Shown: positions 38,062-52,687 of the stretch, piece after piece | Numbering within the stretch: the stretch's first letter is position 1 | How the letters are laid out: the number at the start of each line of letters is the position of its first letter | DNA from: Desulfobaccales bacterium | GTDB taxonomy: Bacteria > Desulfobacterota > Desulfobaccia > Desulfobaccales > 0-14-0-80-60-11 | Direction of reading: 5' to 3' | DNA length: 64,000 nt | Assembly (NCBI GenBank): GCA_052326585.1 | Contig: JBKQLU010000044.1 | Span: 92,682-156,681, forward strand | Notes under the pieces: model-generated | Seen by the model: only the letters and a program-made list of their open reading frames with translations | What the model was told of the DNA's origin: nothing | Database searches by the model: none | Translations under genes and position numbers: made by a program

Positions 38062-38065
38062 CAGG

Positions 38066-41000
38066 TTGAGTTTAATGGCAGGCAAGGACTTTAAAGGAAA
38101 CAAGGTTTCCGCGCCAGGTGAGGTAGCCATCATCGGGATGGCCTGTATCTTCCCCAAGGCTCCCAATTTGCAGACCTTCTGGCAAAACATCGTCTCGAAG
38201 GTAGATGCCATTGATGATCCGGCTGAAGCAAGCCTGACCAGTCAGGTATATGACCCAACCTCCACGGCGAATAACCGCATTTACTGTAAGCGCGGCGGTT
38301 ACTTGAAAGAATTACCCCCTTTCAATCCCGCCGATTTCGGGATTATGCCGGTGGCGTTGGACGGGTCGGAACCGGAACATTTTATGGCCCTTAAGATAGC
38401 TTACGATGCCCTGGCGGACGCCGGCTATCCTGATAAGCCATTTAACCGCGAACTTACCGAAGTCATCCTGGGCCGAGGCACCTTCGTCAACCGGGCCTAT
38501 ATCAGCATGTTGCAGCATGTCCTGGTGGTGGATCAAACCATCAAAATTCTCAAAGAGTTGCATCCAGAGCACACCACGGCAGAACTGGAATCTATCCGGG
38601 AAAGGCTCAAAGCTAGCCTGCCGCCCTTTACTCCTGATACCGCCCCCGGTTTACCCCATAGTGTGATGGCCGGCATCATCGCCAACCGACTGGACTTGAA
38701 AGGCCCCAGTTTGGTGATAGACGCCGCTTGTGCCTCCTGCTTGCTGGCTTTAGAGATTGGCATGCGAGACCTGCTGACTGGGCGATGCGATGCCTGTCTG
38801 ATCGGCGGCGTCCAGATCTCTACTCCGGCCCCTATCCACATGCTCTTCACGCAACTGGGGGCCCTCTCCCATCTACCCCAGTTGAGGCCGTTCGACCAGA
38901 GGGCTGACGGCACTATGCTGGGCGAAGGGATCGGGATGATGGTTCTCAAGCGTAAGGAAGATGCAGTCAGAGACGGCCATCGGATTTATGCTCTGGTAAA
39001 AGGGGTGGGAGCATCCAGCGACGGCAAGGGTAAAGGCCTGCTGGCGCCTCAAGTGGAAGGGGAAGAACTGGCCCTGCGGCGAGCCTATGAGGCAGCAGGG
39101 GTGACCCCGGACACCATCGGCTTGATTGAGGCACACGGGACCGCCTTGCCCCTGGGCGATATTACCGAAATCGAGGCCCTGCGGCGGGTCTTTGGTGGTC
39201 GGAATAGCGGCTTCCCCCGCGTGGCCTTAGGAACGGTGAAATCCATGATCGGCCACCTCATCCCGGCGGCGGGCATCGCGGGGTTAATCAAGGCGGCCTT
39301 GTCCTTATATCACAAAATTTTGCCTCCCACCCTCCATGCAGAGGAGCCCAATCCCGCGCTGGAGATGGAGCGAACCCCTTTTTATCTGAATACGGAAACC
39401 CGACCTTGGATTCACGGTTCCTCCCGGCTGCCGCGTCGCGCCGGGGTTAATTCCTTTGGATTCGGCGGCATCAACACGCATGCGGTGCTGGAGGAATATT
39501 CCGGTGAAGCGGCTCCTGCGGAACTCTATCACCGGATCTGGGAAACAGAGCTCATCCTCATTGAAGGCGCGACCCGCCAGGAACTCATTGACCAGTGCGA
39601 TCTTACCCTGGAATTTTTGGCTCACCAGGCTGAAGCAGACCTGGTAGATATCGCCTCCAGCCTGAACCGACGTCTGAAAGGTAAGCCATACCGGCTGGCC
39701 ATTGTCGCGGAGTCATTGGAAAATCTGGTCAAAAAGTTGAGCCACGGCAGCCAAAAGCTGAGAGATCCAAACCGGGGTCAGATTAAAGATAGAAGCGGTA
39801 TCTACTTTTTTGAAAATCCATTGAGTGGACCGGGAAAACTGGCCTTTCTCTTCCCGGGGGAGGGTTCCCAATATGTGCATATGCTCCAGGATCTTTGTCA
39901 GCATTTCCCTGAAGTAAGAAATTGCTTCGACCTCCTGGATCAAGCGTTTAGCGACCATCCCCGGAACTACCTACCCAGTCAGATCATATTCCCGCCGACG
40001 GAAAAAGATGTTGCCGAAGCGGGGACCAGAATCTGGCAGATTGATGGCGCGGTGGATGCGGTGATCACGGCAGATCGGGCCCTTTTTCGGTTGCTCACTC
40101 TCTTGGGTGTCACTCCCGATGGCATCGCGGGGCATAGCAGCGGTGAACTGATGGCCCTGGAGGCGGCAGGCGCCGTCGCCCTGCGGGGCGACGAAGAACT
40201 GGTCCGGCTTATCAAGGCCGGCAACCAGATGCTCGAAGCCTTGATGGCGGCCCAGGATATCCCGACGGGGGTTCTGCTGGCGGTAGGCGGAGTGGATCGA
40301 CCGGCCATTACCGCAGTCATTGAAAAAAGCTCTGAATTTTTGGTGCTCGCCATGGATAACTGCCCCCATCAATTTGTGCTTTGCGGGACAGAAACCTCCA
40401 TCGCGGCCGCCAAAGCAAAGTTTCTCGAGCTGGGGGGCATCTGTCAATCTTTGCCGTTTACGCGGGCCTACCATACGGAACGCTTTGAACCTATTCTGGG
40501 GCCACTGCGTAACTATTTTCAGAAAGCGACTATTGTATCACCTGCTATTCCTCTCTATTCGTGCATGACCGCAGGGCCTTTCCCTCAGGAGCCAAAAGAA
40601 ATTCGGCGTTACGCGGTGCAACAGTGGGCCAAGCCAGTGCGCTTCCGGGAAACGATTGAGGCAATGTATCAGGATGGTTTCCGGATCTTCCTGGAGGTGG
40701 GCCCTCGGAGCAATCTGACCAGTTTCGTCAATGATATTTTAAAAGGCCAATCGTTTCTGGCAGTGGCCGCTAATGTGCACCAGCGGTCCGGGATCACGCA
40801 ATTGAACCATGCTTTGGGTGTTCTCGCGGCCCATGGTGTGGCCATGAAACTGGATGTCTTGTATAAGTATCGAGCCCCCCGGCAGTTGGATATAGAATCT
40901 GGTGTCGCCGCGCCTCCCGGGAAGCACACCCCAGGCGTCATCCTATCACGAGAATTGCCACTGTTGACCCTGGGAAAGGATGATACTCCCCACGACCAGG

Positions 41001-43570
41001 TTAGGCCCGGGACGCAGTTGGAAGCACAACCGGATAGGCCTCAGCACTGCCAGGTAGGTAATCGAGACATTTGTTCCACTATTCCGAAGAGGACAGATAC
41101 TATTTTTCCGGAAAAACTAGGGGCAGCGCCCGGAACGGAGCTAAGCGCAGCAGAGAATTCTTTTTCAACGGAGAAAATGGCTAAACTGGGCCAAAGGCTA
41201 GGGACCCAGGCAGTCATGCAAGAGTATCTGGCCACCATGGAAGGGTTCCTGGAAACCCAGGAGCAAATTATGCTGGCCTATATTCAGGAAGGCTCTCTCT
41301 CCCTGGGCGAGATTGAGCCTCGGAGCGGAGTGCGGCACCGTGAGACCGACATTCAGGGTGGTTCTGAGATTGCATTTGGGAAAGAATTGACTGCGGTTTC
41401 TCCTCCTGCCCCCAGACAGGTCGAACCGCAAACCCTAAACCTCAACAAGGAATCGACCGTTGCCGCCTCTACGAGGGCTCAGGCCCCGGAGAAGAACCTG
41501 GCCTCGCTACTCTTGTCCATTATCAGTGACAAAACCGGTTACCCGCTTGATATGCTGAATGAGCATCAAAACCTGGAGGCAGACTTGGGGATCGATTCCA
41601 TTAAGCGGATCGAGATCCTGGGAATGCTGTTCCAGCAGCGTGAAGCGCTTACAGTACCCCCCGAGGATCTCGGGTCGTTGCGGACGGTGGCGGAGATCGT
41701 AGCGTTCCTGTCAGCATCGCCGGACACCAAGAGCATTGCGCCGGGAAAGCGCCCAGTTATCCTGGTACAGAAGAGTGGTGGAGCGCCTGGCGATGACGAC
41801 AACCCTGAACTGCCCTTGGTTCTGCGGCCGGGAGGTAGAATAGTCTACTTGGTGCCCCATCAGGAAGTCAGGGTGAATAGAATTCTGGATGTGGAGGAAG
41901 ACCTATTTCTCCGGCATCATACGCTGGGGGGACAGGTGTCCCAAATTACCCCAGAATTGCTGGCGCTGCCGGTTGTTCCCCTCAGCATGAGCTTGGAAAT
42001 GATGGCTGCGGCGGCTGTCCTTCTGAACCCGCAAAAACACCTCGTGGGTATGAAAAATATCCAGGTACACGATTGGCTAGCGATGACTGAGGGAAGCCTT
42101 GAGCTGGAAATAACGGCTCAAGTCCAGTCGGCAACTGCCATCGAGGTGCAGTTGCGCAAGCAGGATTCTACGTCCAAGCAAGCCAAAAAGCCTCGCCTGG
42201 CACTGGAAGGTACCATGATCTTTGGGGGAGAATATCCCGCCGCTCCTGATGCCGGACCCTTTGATCCTGGGGTTGAACTCCCATCAATTCCCCCACCGGA
42301 GGATTTCTATCCCCAAGCTCTTTTCCACGGTCCGTTGTTCCGCTCTGTCAAGGAGATCAGGTATTCCGGCAAAAATGGCGTAGAGGCGGTCTTGGAGAAT
42401 ACGCTCACCCAGCCTTTCTTCCGGAACCAGCCCTCTGACCTTTTTTTGACCAACCCGATTCTTTTGGACGGGGCCGGGCAAGTGGTAGGTCTCTGGGCCA
42501 TTGCCTCCTTGGAATCGACTTTTGTAATCTTTCCTACGATGATAGATGAAATCACCTTTTACGCTTCCCTCGGGGGTCGGACAGGAGAGGTTATTTGTCG
42601 CATTAACCCTCACCTCGAAGGCAATACCAGGATAACTTCAGATATCCGGCTAGTTGCAGAAGACGGGACCTTGTTGGTCCATCTCCAGGGGATGCACCAC
42701 AACCGGCTTAAGCTGCCAAAGATTCTTCATCTCTTTAGGGGTTCGCGGGAGATCATGCTCAGCAGTCCCTGGCGGCTGCCCCTTGCCTCCCTGCCTGAGT
42801 CTAAAAAGATGACCTGTAATCGGCTTGACCCCTTGCCGGTGGAATTCAGTGGCGCTGAAGGCCAGATTTGGCTGAATGTGATAGCTCATATAGTGCTTAG
42901 TAATGAAGAGCGCCAGACTTGGGTTCAACTTTCTGACCTTGATAAACGGCGTATCGAATGGTTAATGGCGCGCCTGACGGGCAAGGAAGCAGTCCGGCGC
43001 CTATTGCAAGAGAATTACAGCCTTGATGTGTGGCTGGCGGATATTGACATTTATCAAGACAACCGGGGGAAACCCTTGGTCCGGGGAGAATGGCTCAACA
43101 AGATCGAAGCGGCGCCAGCGCTGTCTCTGACGCATTCTAACGGAGTCGCTGTGGCCTTGGCTGCGGATAGCTCATCTGGCATCAGCGTCGGGGTCGATAT
43201 CGAATCAGTTCATCGTCCGGGGAAAGGCTTTCCCGAGGTAGCCTTTGCTCCCGAAGAACGGGATCTTCTGCCGCCCCCGCAAACGCCGGAATTCCACGAG
43301 TGGTGCTTACGCCTCTGGTGTGCCAAAGAAGCTGTGGGGAAGGCCTTGGGCCGGGGATTGCCAAACCTGCTGCGAGATTTGAAAGTGGTAGCGGTAAATA
43401 GTCAGACAGGAATAATCAGCGTGGAGGTGACGAATAAATTGGCCCAGGATTATCGACACCTGGCCGGTAAACCTCTCCAAGCTTACACGGCAGGCTCCGA
43501 AGAATTTATTGTGGCAAGCGCATTCATTAAGGAAGTCTCCGGAAACCGCGCGACATCCAAGAACGCTTAA
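38066..43570 (+). CDS. PKS megasynthase: KS - AT-like - ACP - DH - Sfp-type PPTase (1834 aa)
   Basis: KS: DAAC(222)AS, EAHGTA, IGHLIPAAG. AT: GEGSQ, GHS(691)SGE, RAYHT. ACP: DLGIDS(1178)IK. DH: LRHH(1285)TLGG. PPTase: GVDIESV, FAPEER, WCAKEAVGKALG. The start lies 4 nt after the upstream stop (TTG at 38066 or ATG at 38075). Confidence 0.9.
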   Translation: MSLMAGKDFKGNKVSAPGEVAIIGMACIFPKAPNLQTFWQNIVSKVDAIDDPAEASLTSQVYDPTSTANNRIYCKRGGYLKELPPFNPADFGIMPVALDGSEPEHFMALKIAYDALADAGYPDKPFNRELTEVILGRGTFVNRAYISMLQHVLVVDQTIKILKELHPEHTTAELESIRERLKASLPPFTPDTAPGLPHSVMAGIIANRLDLKGPSLVIDAACASCLLALEIGMRDLLTGRCDACLIGGVQISTPAPIHMLFTQLGALSHLPQLRPFDQRADGTMLGEGIGMMVLKRKEDAVRDGHRIYALVKGVGASSDGKGKGLLAPQVEGEELALRRAYEAAGVTPDTIGLIEAHGTALPLGDITEIEALRRVFGGRNSGFPRVALGTVKSMIGHLIPAAGIAGLIKAALSLYHKILPPTLHAEEPNPALEMERTPFYLNTETRPWIHGSSRLPRRAGVNSFGFGGINTHAVLEEYSGEAAPAELYHRIWETELILIEGATRQELIDQCDLTLEFLAHQAEADLVDIASSLNRRLKGKPYRLAIVAESLENLVKKLSHGSQKLRDPNRGQIKDRSGIYFFENPLSGPGKLAFLFPGEGSQYVHMLQDLCQHFPEVRNCFDLLDQAFSDHPRNYLPSQIIFPPTEKDVAEAGTRIWQIDGAVDAVITADRALFRLLTLLGVTPDGIAGHSSGELMALEAAGAVALRGDEELVRLIKAGNQMLEALMAAQDIPTGVLLAVGGVDRPAITAVIEKSSEFLVLAMDNCPHQFVLCGTETSIAAAKAKFLELGGICQSLPFTRAYHTERFEPILGPLRNYFQKATIVSPAIPLYSCMTAGPFPQEPKEIRRYAVQQWAKPVRFRETIEAMYQDGFRIFLEVGPRSNLTSFVNDILKGQSFLAVAANVHQRSGITQLNHALGVLAAHGVAMKLDVLYKYRAPRQLDIESGVAAPPGKHTPGVILSRELPLLTLGKDDTPHDQVRPGTQLEAQPDRPQHCQVGNRDICSTIPKRTDTIFPEKLGAAPGTELSAAENSFSTEKMAKLGQRLGTQAVMQEYLATMEGFLETQEQIMLAYIQEGSLSLGEIEPRSGVRHRETDIQGGSEIAFGKELTAVSPPAPRQVEPQTLNLNKESTVAASTRAQAPEKNLASLLLSIISDKTGYPLDMLNEHQNLEADLGIDSIKRIEILGMLFQQREALTVPPEDLGSLRTVAEIVAFLSASPDTKSIAPGKRPVILVQKSGGAPGDDDNPELPLVLRPGGRIVYLVPHQEVRVNRILDVEEDLFLRHHTLGGQVSQITPELLALPVVPLSMSLEMMAAAAVLLNPQKHLVGMKNIQVHDWLAMTEGSLELEITAQVQSATAIEVQLRKQDSTSKQAKKPRLALEGTMIFGGEYPAAPDAGPFDPGVELPSIPPPEDFYPQALFHGPLFRSVKEIRYSGKNGVEAVLENTLTQPFFRNQPSDLFLTNPILLDGAGQVVGLWAIASLESTFVIFPTMIDEITFYASLGGRTGEVICRINPHLEGNTRITSDIRLVAEDGTLLVHLQGMHHNRLKLPKILHLFRGSREIMLSSPWRLPLASLPESKKMTCNRLDPLPVEFSGAEGQIWLNVIAHIVLSNEERQTWVQLSDLDKRRIEWLMARLTGKEAVRRLLQENYSLDVWLADIDIYQDNRGKPLVRGEWLNKIEAAPALSLTHSNGVAVALAADSSSGISVGVDIESVHRPGKGFPEVAFAPEERDLLPPPQTPEFHEWCLRLWCAKEAVGKALGRGLPNLLRDLKVVAVNSQTGIISVEVTNKLAQDYRHLAGKPLQAYTAGSEEFIVASAFIKEVSGNRATSKNA
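42860..43567 (+). other. Domain: in-cis 4'-phosphopantetheinyl transferase
   Basis: RRIEWLMARLTGKEAVRRLL, LSLTHSNGVAVALA, GVDIESV, WCAKEAVGKALGRG. Confidence 0.8.
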
Positions 43571-43630
43571 ATTCATGATCGGGGATTTTTTAAAAAATTT
43601 TGATTGTTAGTTCGAAACGGAGGTTAAACG

Positions 43631-43945
43631 ATGTGCCCACAAAAAACTGACAACGAATCCAAAGGACGCCTTTCCAAGGAGACTATTTTTGAAGAGGTTT
43701 CCAAGATCTTGGCAGATATGACCAGTGATTGGGACATTGATTTTTCGGGGGGGATTACACCTGATACTCAGATAATATCGGACCTGCAGTTCGAATCTAT
43801 CGATGTCGTCCAGTTCATTGTGCAACTTGAGGGTAAATTTCAACGCAAAGACCTGCCCTTCGAAAAACTCTTGATGGTGGATGAACGCTATCGGGATGAT
43901 TTTACGGTGCAAGAAGCGGTTGACTTTCTCCAGAAAAATCTCTAA
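43631..43945 (+). CDS. Stand-alone acyl carrier protein-like protein
   Basis: 104 aa. A four-helix-type sequence with ISDLQFESIDVVQFIVQLE (Ser in the ESID attachment context). GGAGG SD. Confidence 0.65.
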   Translation: MCPQKTDNESKGRLSKETIFEEVSKILADMTSDWDIDFSGGITPDTQIISDLQFESIDVVQFIVQLEGKFQRKDLPFEKLLMVDERYRDDFTVQEAVDFLQKNL

Positions 43946-43971
43946 TTATTGGGGCTACGCGGAGTACTATC

Positions 43972-45552
43972 ATGCATAAGACCGTGTTAATAGGTCTGGA
44001 CGGCGCAACTTTTTCAATCCTCGACCCTCTGATGGCCGAAGGATATATGCCGTTTCTGAAGAATTTCCTTACCAGGGCTTTCCGGGCCAATTTATTGTCG
44101 ACCCCTAATCCGCTGACTCCTCCGGCCTGGGTTTCCATGATCACAGGCCGGAGTCCAGGCAATCACGGGGTTTATGACTTCATCCGCTCAGAAGATCGAA
44201 ACGGCACAATTTACTTCACCCTTTATAATTCTAGTGATATCCGCTGTGAAACCATCTGGTCAATGGCCAGCCGCCAGGGGCGCAAGGTAATACATCTGAA
44301 TTTTCCCATGATGGCCCCTCCCCAACCCGTCAACGGGTTCGTTATTCCCAGCATGGTGCAATGGCGTCATATTAGGAAGAATATTTATCCTAAAAATTTA
44401 TATGACACGCTCGCCTCAATCCCCGATTTCCAGGCGGACCAATGGGCCTTGACCTATTGTGAGGCCAACGAAGCCATGCGGCACAGGGCCTTATTTCCCA
44501 GCGAAGAAGAGGGCAAGGAATGGGTGGCGAAAAATCTCAACCGGGATAAACAGTGGTTCATTATTCTCAAATATTTGATGGAAAATGACTCAGCCGATTT
44601 AACCGCCATCGTCTTCGATGGCGTGGACAAGCTGCTGCATCCTTATTGGCGGTTACTCGATCCGAATACGCCGGAAAAGCTGCTCGATTGGGAACTACGC
44701 TTGCGGGATCAAGTCCTGGAATATTTCCGCCAGCTTGACTTGTATATCCGGGATATTATCGAATTGGCCGGAGATGAGGCGCATATTTTGATTGCCTCTG
44801 ATCATGGGTTCGGTCCGGCGCGCTATGTCTTTCATATCAATGTCCTGCTGGAGCAATTAGGGTATCTCGGCTGGAGAGAGGTGCACCATTCAAAGGTAAA
44901 AAAACATAATCATGAATGGTCCTTTGCCAGCCTGGACTGGTCAAAAACTACCGCTTATGTCGGAACTCCCAGCAGCAATGGGATTAAAATCAGGGTTCCG
45001 GAGGCTAATGCAAACCCCGAGGACTACCTGGCTTTCAGGGAAAGATTGACGCAGCAATTGCTGGACTACCGGGATCCCGCCACCGGGGAGCAAATTGTCA
45101 CCCGGGTAACTCCCCGGGAGCAGGCTTTCCCAGGTGCGGCGCTGGAACATGCTCCCGATCTGCTGGTAACGCTAAGTGATCACAGTTTTGTTTCCATTAT
45201 CAATGAGGAGCCTATCGTGCTCCACAGACCGGAGATCAACGGAACGCACCGGCCAGAGGGTATCTTTATCCTGGCGGGCCCGGGGGTCAAGGGCGGAGAA
45301 AACCCTGAACCATGTTCCATCCTGGATATTGCCCCCACCATTCTCTATTGCCTGGGGTTACCCATACCTCAGGAATTCGAAGGCAGGTTAACCGTGGGGG
45401 CCTGGGAGGAGGGATATTTGCAGGAGCATAAAATATTGGCCGGGATAGAAACCGCAAACTTTCCGGATCCGACCAGGGTTGAGTCTCCTTTTTCTATCGA
45501 GGAAGAGGAGGCTATCTGGTCTCAATTGCGAGCTTTGGGATATGTTGACTAG
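43972..45552 (+). CDS. Alkaline-phosphatase-superfamily enzyme (type I phosphodiesterase/nucleotide pyrophosphatase family)
   Basis: VLIGLDGATFSILDPLM..., TPNPLTPPAWVSMITGRSPGNHGV (nucleophile Thr context), ASDHGFGP, NGTHRPEG. Confidence 0.75.
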   Translation: MHKTVLIGLDGATFSILDPLMAEGYMPFLKNFLTRAFRANLLSTPNPLTPPAWVSMITGRSPGNHGVYDFIRSEDRNGTIYFTLYNSSDIRCETIWSMASRQGRKVIHLNFPMMAPPQPVNGFVIPSMVQWRHIRKNIYPKNLYDTLASIPDFQADQWALTYCEANEAMRHRALFPSEEEGKEWVAKNLNRDKQWFIILKYLMENDSADLTAIVFDGVDKLLHPYWRLLDPNTPEKLLDWELRLRDQVLEYFRQLDLYIRDIIELAGDEAHILIASDHGFGPARYVFHINVLLEQLGYLGWREVHHSKVKKHNHEWSFASLDWSKTTAYVGTPSSNGIKIRVPEANANPEDYLAFRERLTQQLLDYRDPATGEQIVTRVTPREQAFPGAALEHAPDLLVTLSDHSFVSIINEEPIVLHRPEINGTHRPEGIFILAGPGVKGGENPEPCSILDIAPTILYCLGLPIPQEFEGRLTVGAWEEGYLQEHKILAGIETANFPDPTRVESPFSIEEEEAIWSQLRALGYVD

Positions 45553-45569
45553 AGGGTAATGCCAATATT

Positions 45570-46754
45570 ATGCCGATGTTAGCCAGCAATGGTGTCAAGT
45601 TGAACTATATCCAAACGGGTGCAGGCGCTGATGTCGTCTTGGTCCATGGGCTGGCCTCCAGTTTGGCCTTCTGGTACTGCGGCACGGTTCTGCCGTTGCG
45701 GCGCCATTATCGAGTAACTGCCTATGATCTGCGCGGCCACGGCTACAGCGGTATGCCCACTTCCGGTTATACCCATATGAACATGGCCGAAGATCTGGCC
45801 GGTTTGGTAGATCGCCTGGGCCTGGAAAAATTCCATCTGGTTGGCCACAGCTTCGGAGGCCTCATAGCTATTTCTTATGGCCGGCGTTATCCCCATCGCT
45901 TGAGATCAATGGTGCTGGCAGATGTACCGCTGAATGAAATCAATCCTACTCCGGAGTGGCCCTTTTGGTGGCCAAGCCTGATGAAATTTGAAAACTTGGG
46001 GATCGTTATCCCCCGCGATGAGCCCTATCCGGAATTAAAAGTGCTTGAGGAACTGGCCCGGCCCCAAATTCGCCAACAACTAGGAAACCTTTTATGTGAA
46101 AGCGTGCGCTTGCCCTATGGGTGGGGAAAAGGAGCTGAGCGCGCTGCTAAACGCTGGTTAAATCTATTGAATACCACCACCGCCCCGGATGATATTCGCT
46201 ACCGGCAAGTTTCGGCCGTCGACCTCAGCCAGATTGCCGTGAAAACTTTAGCTGTCTATGGCGTGGAGTCGAAATGGCGCTCTTCAGGTGAGATTTTGAG
46301 AGGCTGCCTGCCTAATGTCGAGGTGGTCTATGTCGAGAAAGCTGGCCATGCTCATCCCTGGGAGCGCCCGGAAGTTTTTTCCGAGCTTTTGCATCGTTTC
46401 CTGGCAGACAGAGACCGCCTCGCCCACCTCTCCCCTGAGGACCGGCGAAAATATCAGCGATTTCCTGTGGAAATGCCGGTAGAAGTGCGAAATCCCGCGG
46501 GAATTTATGCCTCAGCGAAAACCATGAATATCTCGATGAATGGCCTCCGCCTGCACTGTTCTGAAATTATCGGGCGCGGAGACGTCGAAGTTATTATCCC
46601 CGTGAATCAGAACGGTTTAACCCTTATCATACCCGGAAGAATTGTCCGAGAAGAAAATGATGAAGTTGGGGCGGTTTGCCGTTTGGGCGTCGAACTTCTC
46701 TGGCCCGCTGGAGGCAATAAGACGTGGGAAGAGCTTCTGGCCAAGCATCAATAA
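45570..46754 (+). CDS. Alpha/beta-hydrolase fused to a C-terminal PilZ domain
   Basis: ABH: VVLVHGLASS, nucleophile elbow VGHSFGG, GHAHPWERP. PilZ: RRKYQRF (RxxxR, aa 293-297) and NISMNG ((D/N)xSxxG, aa 320-325). Confidence 0.85.
   Translation: MPMLASNGVKLNYIQTGAGADVVLVHGLASSLAFWYCGTVLPLRRHYRVTAYDLRGHGYSGMPTSGYTHMNMAEDLAGLVDRLGLEKFHLVGHSFGGLIAISYGRRYPHRLRSMVLADVPLNEINPTPEWPFWWPSLMKFENLGIVIPRDEPYPELKVLEELARPQIRQQLGNLLCESVRLPYGWGKGAERAAKRWLNLLNTTTAPDDIRYRQVSAVDLSQIAVKTLAVYGVESKWRSSGEILRGCLPNVEVVYVEKAGHAHPWERPEVFSELLHRFLADRDRLAHLSPEDRRKYQRFPVEMPVEVRNPAGIYASAKTMNISMNGLRLHCSEIIGRGDVEVIIPVNQNGLTLIIPGRIVREENDEVGAVCRLGVELLWPAGGNKTWEELLAKHQ
46437..46720 (+). other. Domain: PilZ (c-di-GMP receptor signature intact)
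   Basis: RRKYQRFPVEMPVEV...TMNISMNGLRLH...GRIVREE...CRLGVEL. Confidence 0.75.
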
Positions 46755-46779
46755 CCCTTTTGGGGTGTGAGCTAAGACC

Positions 46780-49092
46780 ATGAATTCCGGATTTCTGCAA
46801 GTCGTAAGACCTGGAGTCAAGCCTGTTGAAAGAGGAGAAACCCCCAGTCAACCGGTGGGGCTAAGGGCGCAAAACTTCCGAAAGGTCTCTCCGAATGGGT
46901 TCGGAGATCCTTTCAATGCCTATCCCCATACCATGGTTTGGTTCAAGGACCACCTTTATGTGGGTACGACGCGGGCCAACCTCCACCTACTGTGGTTTAC
47001 CATGGGAGAAAATGTCAACCGCTTCTCCATCTGGCCCGTGGAGCAGCCAGCTAACCCCTATGATCTCGATCTTAGGGGTCAAATCTGGAGATTCAATCAT
47101 CGCAATGGGGAATGGCAACAGGTTTATATCTCCCCTATGCTGATGGGGAGCGAAGGTTTTGAAGTGCCGCTTTCCATAGGGTTTCGAGGGATTACGGTCT
47201 ATCAGGGCAAGAACGACCCGGAACCTGTGCTTTATTGCACCACCTGGGCCTCTTCCAAGGGGCCTGGGCCCGTCTTGCTGCGTTCCAGTGACGGCCTCAA
47301 TTTTGAAGTGGTCGGTCAACCGGGCCTGGGCGATCCCACGGTGGCAACGGTCCGGTCTGTCGTGCCCTTCCAAGGGAAATTATTCCTTTCTCCTACGGGC
47401 ACCACCAAAGGAAAATACTTAGCGAATATTCCCGACAGAATGGTGATCCTGGTAAACCAGGATCCAGAAAAAGGCGATTGGCAGTTGGCCTGTGAACCTT
47501 TTTTTGGCGACACGACCAACATGGGTGTCTTTGACATGGCCCCTTTTAATGGCTATCTCTATGCCGCCACCACGAATTCTGCGACCGGTTTCCAAATTTG
47601 GAAGACGGATGCCAGTGGCACGCCGCCATACAGGTGGAAAAAAGTACTTTCCCATGGTGGCTACCGGGGCAAGGAAAATCAGAGTGTCGGCCACTTGTTC
47701 GAGTTCAAGGGATGCCTTTACATCGGCACGGGCATTTTGGGTGGCCATGACCGGGAACGCAAGATCGGCCCGGCTGCTCCAGAACTTTTCCGTCTTTTCC
47801 CTGATGATTCCTGGGAATTAATCGTCGGAGAACCACGCCTCACACCGGAGGGGTTAAAAGTTCCTCTCAGTGGTTTAGGAGCTGGTTATAACAGCCCTAC
47901 CGTGGGATATTTCTGGCGCATGTGCGAATACGAAGGTTGGCTTTATCTGGGGACCTACGATTGGTCTGTCTGGATGCCCTATATACGCCCGGAAACCATG
48001 CCGGATAAGCTGCGCCAACGGATCGAACGGGTCGGGGTGGACAACATCGTCAGAGCCCAGGCGGGCTTTGACCTCTGGCGTAGCCGCGATGGGGTGGAAT
48101 GGGTCCCGGTTTCCCGCAACGGTTTCGGCAATCCTTGCAATTACGGGATACGCACCATGGTCTCCTCACCTTATGGCCTCTTTCTGGGGGTAGCGAATCC
48201 CTTCGGGCCGACCCTGGCTGTCCGGAGACTGGCAGGTTGGCGGTATGAGCCCAATGAAGGGGGATGCGAGATTTGGCTGGGCTCCAGAGATTTTCCTGAC
48301 CCCGCGGCTCAACCGGAAGAGGACCTCGTCCCCTACGAAATAGTGGCTGGGAGTGGAAAGCACCCCCTGTCCGACCTCGCTGAGGAAATGATCAGCGATT
48401 TTTACGAGGGTAGCGGTTTCCGCCACTGCGGTTTCTGGCGCCACCCAATCAAGACCCCGCTTAAAGCCTGCGAAAATCTCGTCGAGGAGCTGCTAGCCTT
48501 CCTTTCGAATGAGCCGGGTTCTTTGCTGGAAATCGGCTGTGGCACGGGCGCTACCACCCGGATGATCGCTAAACATTTGCCAGCCACCGCCTTAACCGGG
48601 GTGGTTAGCACTGCTGCGGATCTGGCAGCATGCCAGGAAACCATCCCTACGGGGTTATTCCACCTTGAAAAACGGCCCAAGTTAAAGTTCGCTCCTGGAA
48701 CTTTCGACGCAGCTATCTGTGTCGAAGGCCCCAGTGCCTTTTTGCCAACGGCCCAAAAGTTCTTCCGGATCGTCCACCAGGTGGTGAAGCTGGGGGGGGT
48801 GGTGGTATTTGCGGATTTAGTGACGGCCGGTTCACGCGGTGCACCCAGCAGCCTCCCGGAGTATGAAGCTATCTTAACTCAAGGTGGTTTCAAAGATGTT
48901 CAGCTTTGGGACGTCACGCACTTATGCTGGAGCCCCTTTAAAGGCCACGCCATGAAATACTTCGGGGCTAAATTACTGGGAGGGAAAATAACCCAAAACC
49001 TCTATCAGGAAATTATCAGCCGATTACCGGGCTGGAATCAGCCGGTAAAACTCTACGTCATTGGTCTGGCCAAGAAGACTGAGAATCATTAA
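46780..49092 (+). CDS. Beta-propeller-like domain fused to a class I SAM-dependent methyltransferase
   Basis: The N-terminal ~540 aa have recurring blade-like (L/F)Y(V/A/I/L)GT motifs (HLYVGTT, YLYAATT, CLYIGTG, WLYLGTY). The C-terminus has MTase motif I LLEIGCGTGATT and VVKLGGVVVFADL. Confidence 0.7.
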   Translation: MNSGFLQVVRPGVKPVERGETPSQPVGLRAQNFRKVSPNGFGDPFNAYPHTMVWFKDHLYVGTTRANLHLLWFTMGENVNRFSIWPVEQPANPYDLDLRGQIWRFNHRNGEWQQVYISPMLMGSEGFEVPLSIGFRGITVYQGKNDPEPVLYCTTWASSKGPGPVLLRSSDGLNFEVVGQPGLGDPTVATVRSVVPFQGKLFLSPTGTTKGKYLANIPDRMVILVNQDPEKGDWQLACEPFFGDTTNMGVFDMAPFNGYLYAATTNSATGFQIWKTDASGTPPYRWKKVLSHGGYRGKENQSVGHLFEFKGCLYIGTGILGGHDRERKIGPAAPELFRLFPDDSWELIVGEPRLTPEGLKVPLSGLGAGYNSPTVGYFWRMCEYEGWLYLGTYDWSVWMPYIRPETMPDKLRQRIERVGVDNIVRAQAGFDLWRSRDGVEWVPVSRNGFGNPCNYGIRTMVSSPYGLFLGVANPFGPTLAVRRLAGWRYEPNEGGCEIWLGSRDFPDPAAQPEEDLVPYEIVAGSGKHPLSDLAEEMISDFYEGSGFRHCGFWRHPIKTPLKACENLVEELLAFLSNEPGSLLEIGCGTGATTRMIAKHLPATALTGVVSTAADLAACQETIPTGLFHLEKRPKLKFAPGTFDAAICVEGPSAFLPTAQKFFRIVHQVVKLGGVVVFADLVTAGSRGAPSSLPEYEAILTQGGFKDVQLWDVTHLCWSPFKGHAMKYFGAKLLGGKITQNLYQEIISRLPGWNQPVKLYVIGLAKKTENH

Positions 49093-49099
49093 GGCTTAA

Positions 49100-49996
49100 A
49101 TGGTGGCCGCAGACATGATTAACACATCCTACGAGCCTTTTTCCCGACAACCCGAGTATATTGAAGTTAACCTGGGCTTTATTCAAAGTCTCCATTTACA
49201 GCAATGCCATCAAGTGTTGGACCTGGCCTGTGGCACGGGGACGCTCACCGATCTTCTAGTGGCGCAATACCCTGTTCTGGGAATTATCGGTTTAGATCTG
49301 GACAGAGGATCCCTGCGGTTGGCTTGGGAGCATTTCCAGGCCAGGGGACTTCTAGGAAACAACGGGAGTAAGATCGTCGCCACAGGACAGACCGGCAAGC
49401 CAGCGATACTTTTCCTGCAAGGCACAGCCGACTCCTTACCTGTCAAGAGCCAGAGCTTCGACGCCGTGGTCATGGGCAATGCTATCCATAACCTTCCTGA
49501 TCAGGACCTATTGTTACAAGAAATTCACCGCGCCTTGAAACCGGGCGGCCTCTTTGCCTTTAACACCTCTTTTTTCGCTGGCACCTTTCCCCCCGGTACC
49601 GAAAATCTCTACCATGGCTGGCTGAAGTTCTCCCTGGGCTATATCCAGGCCAAAAATGAAGAATTGCAGCGCCAGGGCCTGGAAGGAATCAAGAGGACGA
49701 GAGGCACCTCGCATCAGGCTTTTTCCAAGCAGTGGCCCACTCCAGAGGAATTTACCCGACTCCTATTACGGAATAACTTTGAGGTAAAATGGTTCTGCCA
49801 CCGCACCATAATGATGAACCAGAACAGCCTCGAAACCGTAGGGGCATATGCTGGTTTAGCCTGTGTCCTTCTCAGCGGGTATCCCATCGAGCTGGCCTGT
49901 AAGGCGCTGGAAGCCTCTGCCGGCCCTGCTTTTGAAGCCATGGGACTAACGGAAGTACGTCGCCTCTGGCTGGAGGTAGTCGCGGTGAAAAAATGA
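49100..49996 (+). CDS. Class I SAM-dependent methyltransferase
   Basis: VLDLACGTGTLTDLL, FDAVVMGNAIHNL, LKPGGLFAFNT. Confidence 0.85.
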   Translation: MVAADMINTSYEPFSRQPEYIEVNLGFIQSLHLQQCHQVLDLACGTGTLTDLLVAQYPVLGIIGLDLDRGSLRLAWEHFQARGLLGNNGSKIVATGQTGKPAILFLQGTADSLPVKSQSFDAVVMGNAIHNLPDQDLLLQEIHRALKPGGLFAFNTSFFAGTFPPGTENLYHGWLKFSLGYIQAKNEELQRQGLEGIKRTRGTSHQAFSKQWPTPEEFTRLLLRNNFEVKWFCHRTIMMNQNSLETVGAYAGLACVLLSGYPIELACKALEASAGPAFEAMGLTEVRRLWLEVVAVKK

Positions 49997-50886: not shown

Positions 50887-51672
50887 ATGGAATCCATTGA
50901 TCAACGATCGCTATCCGGACAGACAGCCATCGTCACGGGGGGGGCCAGTGGCATAGGACGGGCCGTCTCCCTTGGTCTAGCCCGGCTAGGGATAGAGGTG
51001 GCCATCGTAGACCTGAACGAGCGATTACTAAAAGAAACCGCCCAGGAAGTAAAAAGATTAACAGGCTCCCCCGAGCCCTTAATATTGAATAAGGACATCC
51101 GGCGTGAAACCGACATGGAGGACATGGCCCGGGTTACTCTGGAAAAGTTCGGCAGTATCGATATTCTGGTGCATAGTGCCGCCATCTTGCGTGGCAAGGG
51201 CAGCGGACCCAAAATGATGGTAGATGTCGAAGCGGCGGAATGGGACGAAGTTGTGGGCACGAATCTGAAAGGAACCTTCCTCTGTAACCGGGCCGTCTTG
51301 CCGGCCATGATCAAGCAGAGGCGAGGGCAGATCATTAATATCTCGTCTACCTCGGGATTGAGGGGGCGTGCCCTCGATTCGGTCTATTGCGCCTCAAAGT
51401 TCGGGGTTATGGGTCTATCCCAGGCCTTGGCGGAGGAGGTTCGGCCATATGGTATCAGGGTTCAGGTAGTTGCGCCCGATGCTATTGATACTCCTATGTG
51501 GGACCAGAACGGTCCAATTCGTCCTCCCGGCGATTCCTTACCGCCGTCCCGGGTGGCGGATCTGATCGCCTACATGGTAGCCTTGCCTCTGGATGCTGTG
51601 CTCGGTGACGTGGTAATCGCCCCGTTTCGTTTCCGTCGCCGCAAGAGACAGGATGCCACTGATAAGATTTAA
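50887..51672 (+). CDS. SDR-family oxidoreductase (FabG-like)
   Basis: TAIVTGGASGIG, NISSTSG, YCASKFGVMGL. Confidence 0.88.
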   Translation: MESIDQRSLSGQTAIVTGGASGIGRAVSLGLARLGIEVAIVDLNERLLKETAQEVKRLTGSPEPLILNKDIRRETDMEDMARVTLEKFGSIDILVHSAAILRGKGSGPKMMVDVEAAEWDEVVGTNLKGTFLCNRAVLPAMIKQRRGQIINISSTSGLRGRALDSVYCASKFGVMGLSQALAEEVRPYGIRVQVVAPDAIDTPMWDQNGPIRPPGDSLPPSRVADLIAYMVALPLDAVLGDVVIAPFRFRRRKRQDATDKI

Positions 51673-51715
51673 TCGAACCCCTATTATGAAGATTAATAAA
51701 AAGGAGAGCTACCCG

Positions 51716-52687
51716 ATGAATTTAAATCACACTCCATTTAATTCTTCGTTTTTTGTTGTCTTGGTCATCGGCGTGGTGCTGCTGTTACAGACCTCGGCCT
51801 CGGCCCAGGGAGGGTCGTTTGCCCTGGGGCCAGGCAATTATGACCGTACCATCAACTTTGGAGGCATGGAGCGTTCCTATGTAGTGCATGTTCCCGGGAG
51901 TTATACTGCAAGCAGGGCGACCCCGGTAATCCTCAACTTTCACGGTGGCGGCGGCAATCCTAATAGTGAGAGAACGATCTCCATGATGGATCAGGCCTCT
52001 GAGCGTTACGGTTTTATTGTCGTATATCCACAGGGCACCGGTGCCAAAGGGCGCCTCATCAATCCACATGGATATACCTGGAATGCCGGCACCTGTTGTG
52101 GGTGGGCGATGGAAAATGGTATTGACGATGTTGGCTTTACCAATGCGATGCTCGACGCCCTGGAGCAACAGTTCAATATTGATAAGAGACGAGTTTTTGC
52201 TACTGGTATATCCAACGGCGCCATGATGTGCTACCGTCTGGCTTGTGAACTCTCTAACCGCATTGCCGCCATCGCCCCTATCTCCGGTACCATGGGTGTA
52301 ACTAGCTGTAATCCGGTCCGACCGGTTTCGGTGATACATTTCCATGGCACCGCTGATATGTTTGCTCCATACGCCGGCGGCAGAGGGCCGCGTTCTCTCC
52401 CGGGAGAGTCTTTTCAGTCAGTCGATCAAACGATCGCTTTTTGGCTCAAAAGGGATAAGATCAGCGGCCCACCCAGGACCGTCACACGGGGCCAGGCCAG
52501 CGGTTCTTATTATGGCCCCGGAGCGCAGGGCACGGAGGTGGCTCTGTGGACAATTCAGGGAGGAGGCCATACCTGGCCTGGTGGCAGATTCGGTATTTTG
52601 GGGAAGAGATTCCTTGGTGAGTTAACTCAAGACATTTCCGCCAATGACCTCATGTGGGAATTTTTTCAACGGCACCCACTGAAATAG
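51716..52687 (+). CDS. Secreted PHB-depolymerase-family esterase (LpqC-like)
   Basis: Start chosen at the ATG with an AAGGAG SD (MNLNHTPFNSSFFVVLVIGVVLLLQTSASAQG signal). HGGGGN, NAGTCCGWA, GISNGAMM nucleophile elbow, HFHGTAD. Confidence 0.8.
   Translation: MNLNHTPFNSSFFVVLVIGVVLLLQTSASAQGGSFALGPGNYDRTINFGGMERSYVVHVPGSYTASRATPVILNFHGGGGNPNSERTISMMDQASERYGFIVVYPQGTGAKGRLINPHGYTWNAGTCCGWAMENGIDDVGFTNAMLDALEQQFNIDKRRVFATGISNGAMMCYRLACELSNRIAAIAPISGTMGVTSCNPVRPVSVIHFHGTADMFAPYAGGRGPRSLPGESFQSVDQTIAFWLKRDKISGPPRTVTRGQASGSYYGPGAQGTEVALWTIQGGGHTWPGGRFGILGKRFLGELTQDISANDLMWEFFQRHPLK

Follow-up and report, generated by a model that had tools for sequence, protein, structure and literature searches.

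The window, that is, the whole 64-kb stretch of DNA that was analysed, carries a biosynthetic gene cluster in which two megasynthases, a discrete acyl carrier protein (ACP) and an AlkP-superfamily protein precede a gene for an alpha/beta-hydrolase fused to a PilZ domain, with a second PilZ protein and exporter genes further downstream. The genes considered here are as follows.

28299-28904 and, on the opposite strand, 61644-62798: sulfotransferase genes, about 15 kb from the hydrolase gene
29770-38061, + strand: megasynthase 1, ER(NMO)-KS-AT-ACP-KR-DH, no TE (profile search)
38066-43570, + strand: megasynthase 2, KS-AT-ACP-DH-PPTase, no TE (profile search)
43631-43945, + strand: discrete ACP, 104 aa, Ser56 in FESID (ACP models at 30-34 bits, below threshold)
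43972-45552, + strand: AlkP-superfamily (PF01663) protein between ACP and hydrolase (Pfam, synteny)
45570-46754, + strand: hydrolase-PilZ gene, ATG start, 394 aa plus stop codon (ORF call, Pfam, family alignment)
46780, 49100 and 52770: methyltransferase genes (profile search)
51716-52687, + strand: second hydrolase, PHA-depolymerase-like, with signal peptide (NF050058, 171.7 bits against a cutoff of 150)
53647-55089, + strand: TPR-PilZ protein, RRRYER at 54781-54798 and NVSKRG at 54865-54882 (Pfam, alignment)
55237-57525, + strand: export component, an intramembrane-metalloprotease-like domain fused to an HlyD-type adaptor (profile search)
57560-59005, + strand: outer-membrane efflux protein, OEP/TolC family (profile search)

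The hydrolase-PilZ gene starts 17 nt after the end of the preceding gene. In a scan of positions 43400-49200, promoter- and terminator-like sites were no more numerous than in shuffled sequence, which fits an operon and is not informative on its own. The short gap together with this lack of excess sites supports the assignment of the gene to the synthase operon, as the earlier note had placed it, and its linkage to the synthase pair and the ACP is found across phyla. The encoded protein scores 101.4 bits against Abhydrolase_1 (PF00561, cutoff 25.8), 73.4 bits against Abhydrolase_6 (PF12697, cutoff 26.3, residues 22-272) and 43.2 bits against PilZ (PF07238, cutoff 22.5, residues 291-376). The architecture first read from the translation, an N-terminal alpha/beta-hydrolase followed by a C-terminal PilZ domain, is thus borne out by profile search. 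Specifically, the protein is divided as follows.

45570-46424, + strand: alpha/beta-hydrolase domain, residues 1-285 (Pfam, alignment, AF2 model, translation)
46425-46442, + strand: interdomain linker (AF2 model, alignment)
46440-46751, + strand: PilZ domain (Pfam, AF2 model)
46443-46460, + strand: RRKYQR, the RRxxxR motif, residues 292-297 (alignment, translation)
46527-46544, + strand: NISMNG, the [D/N]hSxxG c-di-GMP-binding motif, residues 320-325 (alignment, translation)

The catalytic elements named in the earlier note were all located by translation: HG at residues 26-27 (45645-45650), the nucleophile elbow GHSFGG with Ser94 at residues 92-97 (45843-45860), and a C-terminal GH with His260 at residues 259-260 (46344-46349). 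The G-x-S-x-G elbow, HG and GH are invariant in 23 fusion proteins and kept in 113 of 115 homologues, and the residues Ser94, Asp118 and His260 are likewise found in 113 of the 115, fused and unfused. In the alignment, the canonical acid position after strand beta-7 is occupied by an invariant Ser234, beside which the residue is variable, and Asp118, which follows strand beta-6, is invariant. An acid after beta-6 is the position used by some dehalogenases. The probable catalytic triad, as judged from this alignment, is Ser94, His260 and Asp118. A helical lid spans approximately residues 125-220, where the AF2 model has lower confidence.

The family placement of the hydrolase domain does not back its designation as a thioesterase. 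The thioesterase profile PF00975 reached 20.6 bits against a cutoff of 26.4 and matched only residues 47-110, around the nucleophile elbow; membership in the type II TEs was rejected on this below-threshold score. All 39 NCBIfam matches lay far under their cutoffs, and PDB searches with the hydrolase gave no thioesterase among the top 60 sequence matches or the top 50 fold matches. The nearest solved structures are the phospholipase A PlaF (6i8w), the AHL-lactonase Est816 (5egn), the enol-lactonase PcaD (2xua) and the intracellular PhaZ (8ynv), with Foldseek E values of about 1e-18, profile E values of 2e-35 to 1e-25 and identities of 19-26%. With PF00975 below its cutoff and generic esterases, lipases and lactonases as the nearest structures, family membership lends the name thioesterase no support. 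Other specific assignments were rejected as well. BioH (TIGR01738) scored 46.4 bits against a cutoff of 206.95, and the JGI name "pimeloyl-ACP methyl ester carboxylesterase" borne by many homologues looks like a generic orthologous-group label rather than a specific assignment. Haloalkane dehalogenase or OleB membership was excluded by the nucleophile, which is Ser94 and not Asp in all homologues, and by the PRK03592 score (72.4 bits against a cutoff of 241).

In the AF2 model (pLDDT 80.6), the C-terminal part forms strands at residues 303-307, 313-321, 325-330, 337-344, 351-363 and 370-376, followed by a helix at 384-393, with block-averaged pLDDT over the PilZ region of 68-90; as modelled, these six strands and the C-terminal helix match a canonical PilZ domain. 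Only residues 286-294, covering the linker and the start of RRKYQR, have a pLDDT below 50. The two PilZ signatures, the second as refined in bioRxiv 10.1101/814665, are intact, conserved and canonically spaced, in agreement with the initial reading: 22 residues separate R297 from N320, so that N320 lies 23 positions past R297. Among the 55 homologues of at least 360 aa, on which all fusion-family motif counts are based, R293, R297 and the whole [D/N]hSxxG are kept in every one (identity 35-98%), and in 52 of them the Ser of [D/N]hSxxG lies 24 residues past the final Arg of RxxxR. Residues H26, G27, H93, S94, G96, D118, G259, H260, R293, R297, S322 and G325 are invariant in the 23 diverse fusion proteins. 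Since both motifs are kept in 55 of 55 homologues down to 35% identity, the alignment argues that hydrolase and PilZ are no chance juxtaposition.

From these motifs, the PilZ domain of the hydrolase would very likely bind c-di-GMP. It could instead have become a degenerate structural appendage, or bind another ligand or a protein, as binding has been lost in some PilZ-family domains; at the first position of RRxxxR, 12 of 55 members lack an Arg (nine carry H, Q, N or K and three have an alignment gap), and conservation is lowest in the PilZ part, where the mean pairwise identity is 31% against 65% for the N-terminal hydrolase core. We regard such a loss of c-di-GMP binding as very unlikely, because the residues that define binding, namely the Args of RxxxR, the D/N, the hydrophobic residue, the Ser and the Gly, are invariant in 55 proteins despite this divergence, and the fixed motif spacing is a signature of selection on ligand binding.

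A second predicted c-di-GMP receptor of the cluster is the TPR-PilZ protein, whose PilZ domain shares 38% identity with that of the hydrolase (E=1e-23) and is, by this similarity, its paralogue. In 4 of 4 long fusion loci, a TPR-PilZ gene with intact motifs lies upstream of the exporter genes. When the PilZ part by itself was searched exhaustively with HMMER against 1.8 billion representative proteins, nearly all of its closest relatives were TPR-PilZ proteins or pieces of the fusion family; the search yielded 27 matches, many of them fragments, and is no basis for a family count. In Halioglobus japonicus, both the hydrolase orthologue and the TPR orthologue are devoid of PilZ, and in the cases examined a cluster has either both PilZ domains or neither. 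The 64-kb window holds no gene for a diguanylate cyclase or phosphodiesterase, an observation that counts against the gated-release explanation proposed below.

PilZ-less orthologues of the hydrolase fill the same slot, directly downstream of both synthase homologues, in 32 of the 40 best loci. Their hosts include Gammaproteobacteria, Desulfobulbaceae, Acidobacteriota, Planctomycetota, Poribacteria, Paracoccaceae and Myxococcales, and none of the PilZ-less loci was found to have a PilZ closer than 10 kb to the hydrolase. A scan of one genome per species returned only PilZ-less relatives of at most 41% identity, the fusion clade being essentially absent from species representatives; the contexts of the fusion loci were obtained via exact-protein look-ups. 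Since PilZ-less orthologues occupy the same slot in these 32 loci across phyla, the hydrolase is core to the pathway and PilZ a lineage-specific add-on. The junction between the domains agrees with this view. RxxxR begins 9-19 residues past the conserved F277 and stand-alone enzymes usually end 6-12 residues past it; across the family RxxxR lies 26-36 residues past the catalytic His. In the present protein, RRxxxR starts about 15 residues past the last conserved hydrolase residue and about 32 past the catalytic His. In the alignment, RRxxxR thus begins exactly at the point where the stand-alone enzyme ends. Additionally, one natural PilZ-less member of 285 aa is nested in the fusion clade with its gene context unchanged. 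The best explanation of these comparisons is that the hydrolase gained a canonical PilZ domain in a clade centred on Desulfobaccales/Thermodesulfobacteriota. We consider the PilZ-less orthologues and the second PilZ protein of the cluster, neither of which figures in the earlier note, the most informative evidence obtained. A literature search on PilZ with hydrolase, thioesterase or polyketide, whose coverage was incomplete, found no description of the hydrolase-PilZ architecture, consistent with the initial remark that such a fusion in a PKS operon had not been described.

The synthases belong, by domain content and profile scores, to the ArsA/ArsD-like, Pfa-related iterative type I lipid synthases. 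Megasynthase 1, with an N-terminal NMO/FabK-like ER, scores 1183 bits against TIGR02813 (PfaA subfamily, cutoff 1010), and megasynthase 2 ends in a PPTase (PF01648, 63 bits). We take the pair to match ArsA/ArsD domain by domain. The sponge-symbiont swf cluster type was rejected, since it has another architecture (SwfA is KS-AT-DH-ER-KR-ACP, accompanied by an R-ST protein and a radical-SAM enzyme). Neither megasynthase has a PF00975 or thioester-reductase match at E<=0.001, so the claim that both are without a TE stands. All fusion clusters examined are syntenic, with ER-KS-AT-ACP-KR-DH, KS-AT-ACP-DH-PPTase, a small discrete ACP, an AlkP-family protein and then the hydrolase, and the gene order is identical in fusion loci at 98%, 58%, 44%, 43% and 39% identity. 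The discrete ACP is kept upstream of the hydrolase in 20 PilZ-less and 8 fusion loci. In Planctomycetota, the clusters consist of synthase 1, synthase 2, ACP and hydrolase, with or without an SDR, and the ACP directly abuts the hydrolase, with neither AlkP nor methyltransferase genes present. Thus the ACP, the hydrolase and, outside Planctomycetota, the AlkP-family protein form a conserved set that is likely the off-loading machinery, and from this linkage the hydrolase probably receives its substrate on the discrete ACP. The AlkP-family neighbour is without a PDB sequence relative at E<=0.01 and without an NCBIfam match. Its co-conservation between ACP and hydrolase weighs against a release role for the hydrolase, as do four loci (L012, L013, L025 and L033) in which the AlkP and hydrolase genes are kept but the surrounding 8-10 kb hold no synthase.

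The most economical role for the hydrolase is chain release from the discrete ACP, because the synthases contain neither a TE nor a reductase domain and the second hydrolase of the cluster, which carries a signal peptide, is predicted to be secreted and is for that reason no cytoplasmic release candidate. To this extent the earlier proposal of the hydrolase as the best release candidate stands; the thioesterase family membership that it implied fails. The step from a missing TE to a release role holds only in part as well: the TE is indeed absent, but its absence is normal in this synthase class and other off-loading routes exist. A TE-less synthase is off-loaded by direct transfer from ArsA to ArsB/ArsC (PMC6274091), and a TE-less PUFA synthase is finished by the terminal acyltransferase PfaB (PMC12895367). 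In the present cluster, the AlkP-family enzyme and the second AT domain, that of megasynthase 2, are alternative release candidates that the earlier note did not consider.

As a whole, the data are best explained by a PilZ-gated hydrolase that takes the acyl chain off a carrier protein, a reading that we hold tentatively and rate at a little under even. According to this model, a cytoplasmic serine hydrolase would be the dedicated component of a pathway whose synthases possess neither TE nor reductase, and would take the finished acyl chain off its carrier, for which the discrete ACP two genes upstream is the best candidate, either by hydrolysis or by transfer to an acceptor. Before its export, the freed product would undergo methylation, reduction and possibly sulfation. 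Binding of c-di-GMP to RRxxxR and [D/N]hSxxG may order the linker and dock the PilZ barrel against the hydrolase, which would switch either catalysis or the access of substrate. To judge by the analogous BcsA and Alg44, high c-di-GMP would probably activate the enzyme. Beside the HlyD/TolC-type exporter, the TPR protein with its paralogous PilZ would then act as a second checkpoint, at export, under the same messenger. The fuller proposal, in which c-di-GMP directly switches acyl off-loading through PilZ and the TPR-PilZ protein gates export of the same product, is possible and more doubtful.

The hydrolase may instead be a tailoring or editing enzyme, for example an esterase acting on a methyl-ester or other ester protecting group in the manner of BioC/BioH, an acyltransferase, or a type II TE-like proofreader. 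PilZ would then control a later step, and release would fall to the AT of megasynthase 2, working as a terminal acyltransferase in the way of PfaB, or be aided by the AlkP-family enzyme. The likeness of the hydrolase to esterases, lactonases and PhaZ rather than thioesterases points in this direction, as do the three to four methyltransferases of the cluster (two with weak BioC, Mtf2 or CMAS-type similarity), the co-conserved AlkP protein and the four loci in which AlkP and hydrolase genes have no adjacent synthase. However, Planctomycetota dispense with methyltransferases and AlkP and yet retain the hydrolase beside the ACP, the linkage of methyltransferases to the hydrolase is far less consistent than that of the ACP, and the BioH score is far below its cutoff (46 against 207 bits); we judge a tailoring or editing role somewhat unlikely. 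A more specific proposal makes the hydrolase the TE half of a split CurM/olefin-synthase-type off-loading system giving a terminal alkene. As summarised for CurM in PMC3908369, a sulfotransferase would sulfonate a beta-hydroxyacyl-ACP, with PAPS supplied via the APS kinase of the cluster, and the hydrolase would cleave the thioester with decarboxylative loss of sulfate. The cluster does hold two sulfotransferases, an APS kinase, a sulfate symporter and a TauE exporter, and among solved structures the sulfotransferase at 61644-62798 is closest to the ST domains of CurM (4gbm, E=1.2e-10) and olefin synthase (4gox). Nevertheless, this ST similarity is weak (44 bits) and near that for tyrosylprotein sulfotransferases, a sulfotransferase homologue is nearby in one PilZ-less locus only (L001), the hydrolase falls outside PF00975, the family of the CurM TE, and sulfation of the final product would account equally for the sulfur genes. 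The sulfotransferase genes lie far off on either side and are neither adjacent nor fused to the hydrolase and ACP, on which ground a CurM/OLS-type ST-TE module was rejected; the split route is highly improbable.

For the PilZ domain, the alternative to an allosteric gate is a c-di-GMP-dependent module for assembly or localisation that leaves the catalytic rate unchanged. The ligand-bound PilZ would gather the hydrolase and the TPR-PilZ protein at the membrane-proximal HlyD/TolC-type exporter complex and so couple release to export in space. The cluster's pair of paralogous PilZ domains, one of which belongs to a TPR scaffold protein beside exporter genes, their joint presence or absence in the cases examined, and the union of PilZ with an HlyD-like adaptor domain in Alg44 are consistent with such a module. 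The linker is very short and length-constrained, as seen from the narrow range of RxxxR positions past the His, which favours intramolecular coupling, and pure localisation is in our assessment unlikely; it is also compatible with a PilZ-gated release enzyme and not exclusive of it.

Known PilZ-gated output enzymes serve polysaccharide synthesis and export, as in BcsA and Alg44, or motility control, and to our knowledge reports of c-di-GMP control over secondary-metabolite and lipid pathways have so far concerned transcription. If the gated-release reading is true, the biofilm second messenger c-di-GMP would directly switch a lipid-assembly step, and direct second-messenger control would, through the PilZ of a pathway hydrolase, reach assembly lines of the fatty-acid/polyketide type. 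Were off-loading and export both PilZ-gated, a nucleotide second messenger would for the first time be seen to act post-translationally on a megasynthase pathway, and the two checkpoints would have arisen by duplication of one sensor domain inside a biosynthetic gene cluster. Because PilZ sits on a pathway hydrolase, the product is suggested to be a biofilm or cell-surface lipid. The system also offers a handle on the large and widespread class of TE-less "secondary lipid" synthases, and a ligand-switchable release enzyme would be a useful part for pathway engineering. Furthermore, orthologous clusters that either have both PilZ domains or lack both provide natural matched controls, and some of them occur in strains in culture (Halioglobus japonicus, Singulisphaera acidiphila), which makes the hypothesis cheap to test.

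Several known systems resemble the cluster in part. ArsA/ArsD of Azotobacter vinelandii and the "Type M-T" synthases, a Pfa-related secondary-lipid synthase class (Shulse and Allen 2011, PMC3098273), likewise comprise two Pfa-related megasynthases with no TE. Both also share with the cluster a PPTase associated with or fused to the synthase and a product that would stay on the ACP until another enzyme takes over; unlike them, the window holds no type III PKS acceptor and has a discrete ACP, an AlkP-family protein and the hydrolase instead. PfaB (PMC12895367) is similarly a serine enzyme that takes a long acyl chain from the ACP of a TE-less Pfa-type synthase, but with a malonyl-acyltransferase fold in contrast to the alpha/beta-hydrolase fold; its analogue in the window is the AT of megasynthase 2, a competitor of the hydrolase for the release role. 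The type I/II PKS/NRPS thioesterases of PF00975 share with the hydrolase the alpha/beta-hydrolase fold, a Ser in a GxSxG elbow, a gene beside the megasynthase and the proposed role of cleaving acyl-S-carrier thioesters, whereas the large helical lid and putative acid after beta-6 of the hydrolase resemble the Abhydrolase_1/6 esterase, lactonase and dehalogenase classes. PlaF, Est816, PcaD and PhaZ, which match the hydrolase domain best in structure and sequence, neither carry PilZ nor are linked to a megasynthase. On the regulatory side, the cellulose synthase BcsA, like the hydrolase-PilZ protein, has a canonical PilZ C-terminal on the output enzyme of a secreted-product pathway, with RxxxR on the interdomain linker, and the expected logic is direct post-translational activation by c-di-GMP; the catalytic partner is a membrane glycosyltransferase in BcsA and an alpha/beta-hydrolase in a fatty-acid/polyketide pathway here. 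Alg44 of alginate export, like the cluster, couples a PilZ receptor to an HlyD-type export adaptor, the TPR-PilZ gene here directly preceding the HlyD and OEP genes; unlike in Alg44, PilZ and adaptor are separate proteins in the cluster, with the PilZ carried by a TPR protein, and the export product is in all probability a lipid where that of Alg44 is a polysaccharide.

The gene at 45570-46754 encodes a two-domain protein, in which the alpha/beta-hydrolase and the PilZ domain claimed by the earlier note are both confirmed by Pfam. The hydrolase spans residues 22-272 (Abhydrolase_1, 101.4 bits; Abhydrolase_6, 73.4 bits), and the PilZ domain, a predicted c-di-GMP receptor, spans residues 291-376 (43.2 bits; gathering score 22.5). 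All the motifs that the note had claimed were found where it placed them.

Translated motifs of the hydrolase-PilZ protein (gene 45570-46754, + strand, ATG start, 394 aa)
Residues 26-27: HG
Residues 92-97: GHSFGG, with Ser94 as nucleophile
Residues 259-260: GH
Residues 292-297: RRKYQR
Residues 320-325: NISMNG

An AlphaFold2 model from a 23-sequence alignment has a mean pLDDT of 80.6 and a pTM of 0.68, with pLDDT below 50 in the linker 286-294 only; its PilZ part has the topology that Galperin and Chou give as canonical for PilZ (bioRxiv 10.1101/814665). Since the position after β7, the canonical acid site, is an invariant Ser in the homologue alignments, while Asp118 after β6 is invariant, we propose a putative Ser94-His260-Asp118 triad. 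On the sequence and fold features tested, the protein belongs to both the alpha/beta-hydrolase and the PilZ families, with its catalytic acid as a candidate only.

The hydrolase-PilZ protein represents a conserved family, not a chance product. Among 5.8 billion proteins searched, about 60 clusters are recorded by Pfam with both domains, at identities from 98% down to 35%. The closest named fusion member comes from a Desulfobaccales MAG and others from MAGs labelled Thermodesulfobacteriota or 'Proteobacteria'; public annotations name the protein only 'alpha/beta fold hydrolase'. In 23 diverse aligned fusion members, H26, G27, H93, S94, G96, D118, G259, and H260 of the hydrolase and R293, R297, S322, and G325 of the PilZ domain are invariant. 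Every one of the 55 homologues with 360 aa or more has intact RxxxR and [D/N]hSxxG motifs, and the last Arg of the former precedes the Ser of the latter by 24 residues in 52 of them. Within RRxxxR the first Arg alone varies, being H, Q, N, or K in 9/55 and an alignment gap in 3/55. Because these binding residues are invariant although PilZ is the most divergent region (31% mean pairwise identity versus 65% in the N-terminal hydrolase core), the pattern indicates that selection maintains c-di-GMP binding.

The hydrolase-PilZ gene lies within a long block of co-directional genes, preceded by housekeeping genes upstream of the cluster.

Genes around the hydrolase-PilZ gene
From 28299, + strand: short sulfotransferase
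From 29058, +: APS kinase
29770-38061, +: megasynthase 1, ER(NMO/FabK-like)-KS-AT-ACP-KR-DH
38066-43570, +: megasynthase 2, KS-AT-ACP-DH-PPTase
43631-43945, +: discrete ACP, 104 aa, FESID with Ser56 at 43796-43798; ACP models below threshold
43972-45552, +: AlkP-superfamily protein (PF01663, 130 bits)
46780-49092, +: 770-aa protein, about 540 N-terminal residues without a Pfam family, then a class I methyltransferase
From 49100 and from 52770, +: two further methyltransferases
From 49993 and from 50887, +: two SDRs
51716-52687, +: PHA-depolymerase-like esterase with signal peptide (ORF 51653-52687, likely true start 51716)
53647-55089, +: TPR-PilZ protein
55237-57525, +: metalloprotease-like/HlyD fusion
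57560-59005, +: OEP/TolC outer-membrane efflux protein (OEP)
60193-63951, -: TauE, second sulfotransferase (61644-62798), Na/sulfate symporter

The hydrolase-PilZ start follows the AlkP stop codon by 17 nt, and promoter-like or terminator-like sites in 43400-49200 are not commoner than in shuffled sequence, both consistent with an operon. No GGDEF, EAL, or HD-GYP gene occurs within the 64-kb window. The apparent start of megasynthase 2 is a TTG four bases past the megasynthase 1 stop (38061-38066), and this start is called slightly differently in relatives (1831 aa versus 1834 aa). The N-terminal ~360 residues of the HlyD fusion resemble daptide/RiPP HExxH intramembrane metalloproteases (NF041824, 96 bits, under cutoff). 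A PEP-CTERM-tagged protein that weakly matches DUF4114 is encoded immediately before the cluster (26869-27546, +) and may point to an exosortase-type setting at the cell surface or in a biofilm. The sulfur-activation and transport genes flanking the cluster (28299-29651, +; 60193-63951, -) suggest a sulfated product or sulfate leaving-group chemistry.

The claim that neither megasynthase has a thioesterase (TE) domain is upheld, as domain searches found neither a TE nor a thioester-reductase (R) domain in the two proteins. Megasynthase 1 scores 1183 bits on the PfaA subfamily model (cutoff 1010) and a PPTase is fused to megasynthase 2; by these two features the pair counts as a Pfa-related 'secondary lipid' synthase. 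It groups with the associated-PPTase types, which include the phenolic-lipid synthase ArsA/ArsD of Azotobacter and whose products are mostly uncharacterised (PMC3098273).

Exact-protein lookups showed that fusion members at 98%, 58%, 44%, 43%, and 39% identity share one gene order: megasynthase 1, megasynthase 2, an ORF of ~100 aa, the AlkP protein, and hydrolase-PilZ. The longer contigs continue with the 770-aa protein, methyltransferases, SDRs, esterase, TPR protein, HlyD fusion, and OEP. A scan of one genome per species gave no close fusion member and many PilZ-less relatives (285-320 aa, 30-41% identity), carried among others by Gammaproteobacteria (including Halioglobus japonicus), Desulfobulbaceae, Acidobacteriota, Poribacteria, Paracoccaceae, Myxococcales, and Planctomycetota (including Singulisphaera acidiphila DSM 18658). 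When the cluster proteins of the window were compared with these loci by tblastn, both megasynthase homologues lay directly 5' of the hydrolase in 32 of the 40 best loci; four were interrupted by contig ends, and the remaining four (L012, L013, L025, L033) carry AlkP and hydrolase genes without a synthase homologue within 8-10 kb upstream, so the AlkP/hydrolase module is not always physically linked to a synthase. The 770-aa protein, whose orthologues occur at 38-53% identity in clusters from several phyla, accompanies this module in L012, L013, and L033, not in L025. In 28 related loci a small discrete ACP is conserved between the megasynthase 2 and hydrolase genes; 20 of these are PilZ-less loci, where it is detectable just 5' of the hydrolase. 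The AlkP gene usually lies between the megasynthases and the PilZ-less hydrolase, its product being co-conserved between ACP and hydrolase in most clusters outside Planctomycetota, where it is absent and the ACP adjoins the hydrolase directly. Because PilZ-less hydrolases share this synthase/ACP context across phyla, the hydrolase belongs to the ancient core of this pathway, as a partner of such synthases and of a discrete carrier protein, and the PilZ domain is a later addition.

The junction itself is tight. RxxxR begins 9-19 residues past the conserved F277 (15 in 37/55 homologues), stand-alone hydrolases typically terminate 6-12 residues past that position, and only 26-36 residues separate the catalytic His from RxxxR in the fusions; PilZ is thus joined to the helix after the His loop with almost no spacer. 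In a neighbour-joining tree of the hydrolase domain, nearly all fusion proteins fall in one clade. Short members (P0042, P0043) are nested within it, and another small set of fusions (P0059, P0061, P0065) sits amid PilZ-less sequences; P0043 is a genuine 285-aa gene and P0059 a genuine fusion, each in the usual gene context. These placements imply either several gains of PilZ or a gain followed by loss, and the distance tree is compatible with both.

A second PilZ domain (42.3 bits, with RRRYER and NVSKRG) forms the C-terminus of the TPR protein and shares 38% identity with the hydrolase PilZ over 102 residues (E=1e-23). With the hydrolase PilZ alone as query, an exhaustive search of 1.84 billion representative proteins gave fusion-family fragments and TPR-PilZ proteins as best matches, so the two domains are, judged by sequence, each other's closest relatives, which fits a duplication within this cluster type. 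Each of the four long fusion loci encodes a TPR-PilZ protein with intact motifs directly 5' of the genes for the HlyD fusion and OEP. In the PilZ-less loci, no PilZ could be detected up to 10 kb from the hydrolase. In the cultured gammaproteobacterium Halioglobus japonicus (L004), both the hydrolase (9962-10921, 319 aa) and the TPR orthologue (15907-16833, 308 aa, 34% identity) are without PilZ, the latter ending right after its repeats, beside the metalloprotease-like/HlyD gene (13398-15722, minus strand). The rest of the module, namely synthases, ACP, AlkP protein, HlyD fusion, and 770-aa protein, is kept. This single example suggests that the two sensors are gained or lost together.

In the functional assignments for the hydrolase-PilZ protein, all of which we infer, membership of the pathway is very probable. 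The thioesterase activity that the earlier note raised as a possibility did not find backing at the family level, since PF00975 scored 20.6 bits versus 26.4 and matched the nucleophile elbow only. All 39 NCBIfam matches, including PcaD, RutD, MenH, BioH, haloalkane dehalogenase, and intracellular PHA depolymerase, fell far under their cutoffs; membership in the BioH or dehalogenase families likewise failed. Many homologues bear the JGI name 'pimeloyl-ACP methyl ester carboxylesterase', which seems to be a generic label for an orthologous group. The best solved relatives (19-26% identity) are generic esterases, AHL-lactonase Est816, phospholipase PlaF, PcaD, and PhaZ, with no PKS thioesterase among them. 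The release part of the claim survives as the most economical reading, with roughly even chances: because the synthases carry no TE or R domain, the other cluster hydrolase is secreted, and the most constant neighbours are the synthase pair and the discrete ACP, the enzyme may unload acyl-S-ACP through hydrolysis or transfer. That other hydrolase, an odd occupant of a lipid-synthase cluster, passes the NCBIfam model of the catalytic domain of extracellular type-1 short-chain PHA depolymerases (171.7 bits versus 150), and its clear signal peptide (...LLLQTSASA/QGG) indicates action outside the cytoplasm. Conceivably, the second AT domain might pass the chain to the discrete ACP, with unloading next.

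Alternatively, the hydrolase could be a tailoring, editing, or acyl-transfer enzyme, with release by the second AT, by direct hand-off, or with help from the AlkP enzyme. PfaB, the terminal acyltransferase of Pfa synthases (PMC12895367), is a precedent for AT-mediated release, and ArsA to ArsB/ArsC for direct hand-off (PMC6274091). The AlkP protein, a phosphodiesterase-type enzyme unexplained beside a carrier protein, has neither a PDB relative by sequence nor a match in NCBIfam; it could assist release, and a role on the phosphopantetheine arm of the carrier protein is speculative. A split CurM-like off-loading by sulfotransferase and hydrolase, yielding a terminal alkene, finds some backing in the sulfotransferase at 61644-62798, whose best solved relatives are the CurM ST (4gbm, E=1.2e-10) and olefin-synthase ST domains; however, the CurM match reaches 44 bits only and the gene lies ~15 kb from the hydrolase.

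For the preferred unloading role, PilZ would make the reaction respond to c-di-GMP. The hydrolase PilZ is predicted, with good likelihood, to bind the ligand through RRxxxR in the linker and [D/N]hSxxG in the barrel; a PilZ without ligand binding is the rival view, and motif conservation speaks against it. Binding would order the linker and shift the barrel against the lid or His-loop region, and activation at high c-di-GMP is expected by analogy with BcsA and Alg44. Whether the ligand alters catalysis, beyond localisation alone, we regard as evenly balanced, the competing view being a c-di-GMP-dependent assembly or localisation module that joins hydrolase, TPR-PilZ protein, and exporter. This activation would be coordinated with the second PilZ, which the TPR protein carries at the exporter.

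Full-text searches turned up no account of a hydrolase joined to PilZ, nor of a PilZ domain within a PKS/FAS cluster. A survey of PilZ fusion partners lists glycosyltransferase, HlyD, REC, GGDEF, EAL, HD-GYP, MCP, and CheC, and does not mention a hydrolase (bioRxiv 10.1101/814665). If true, the proposal would provide the first direct c-di-GMP link to a megasynthase pathway; a duplicated sensor acting at two pathway steps is a second source of interest, and clusters that naturally carry or lack PilZ allow the hypothesis to be tested directly. The hydrolase-PilZ protein is akin in its proposed working principle to BcsA and Alg44, both PilZ-gated output enzymes, while its gene context belongs with the TE-less, Pfa-related lipid synthases. 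We rate it as familiar sensor logic in a new pathway class and with a new partner enzyme.
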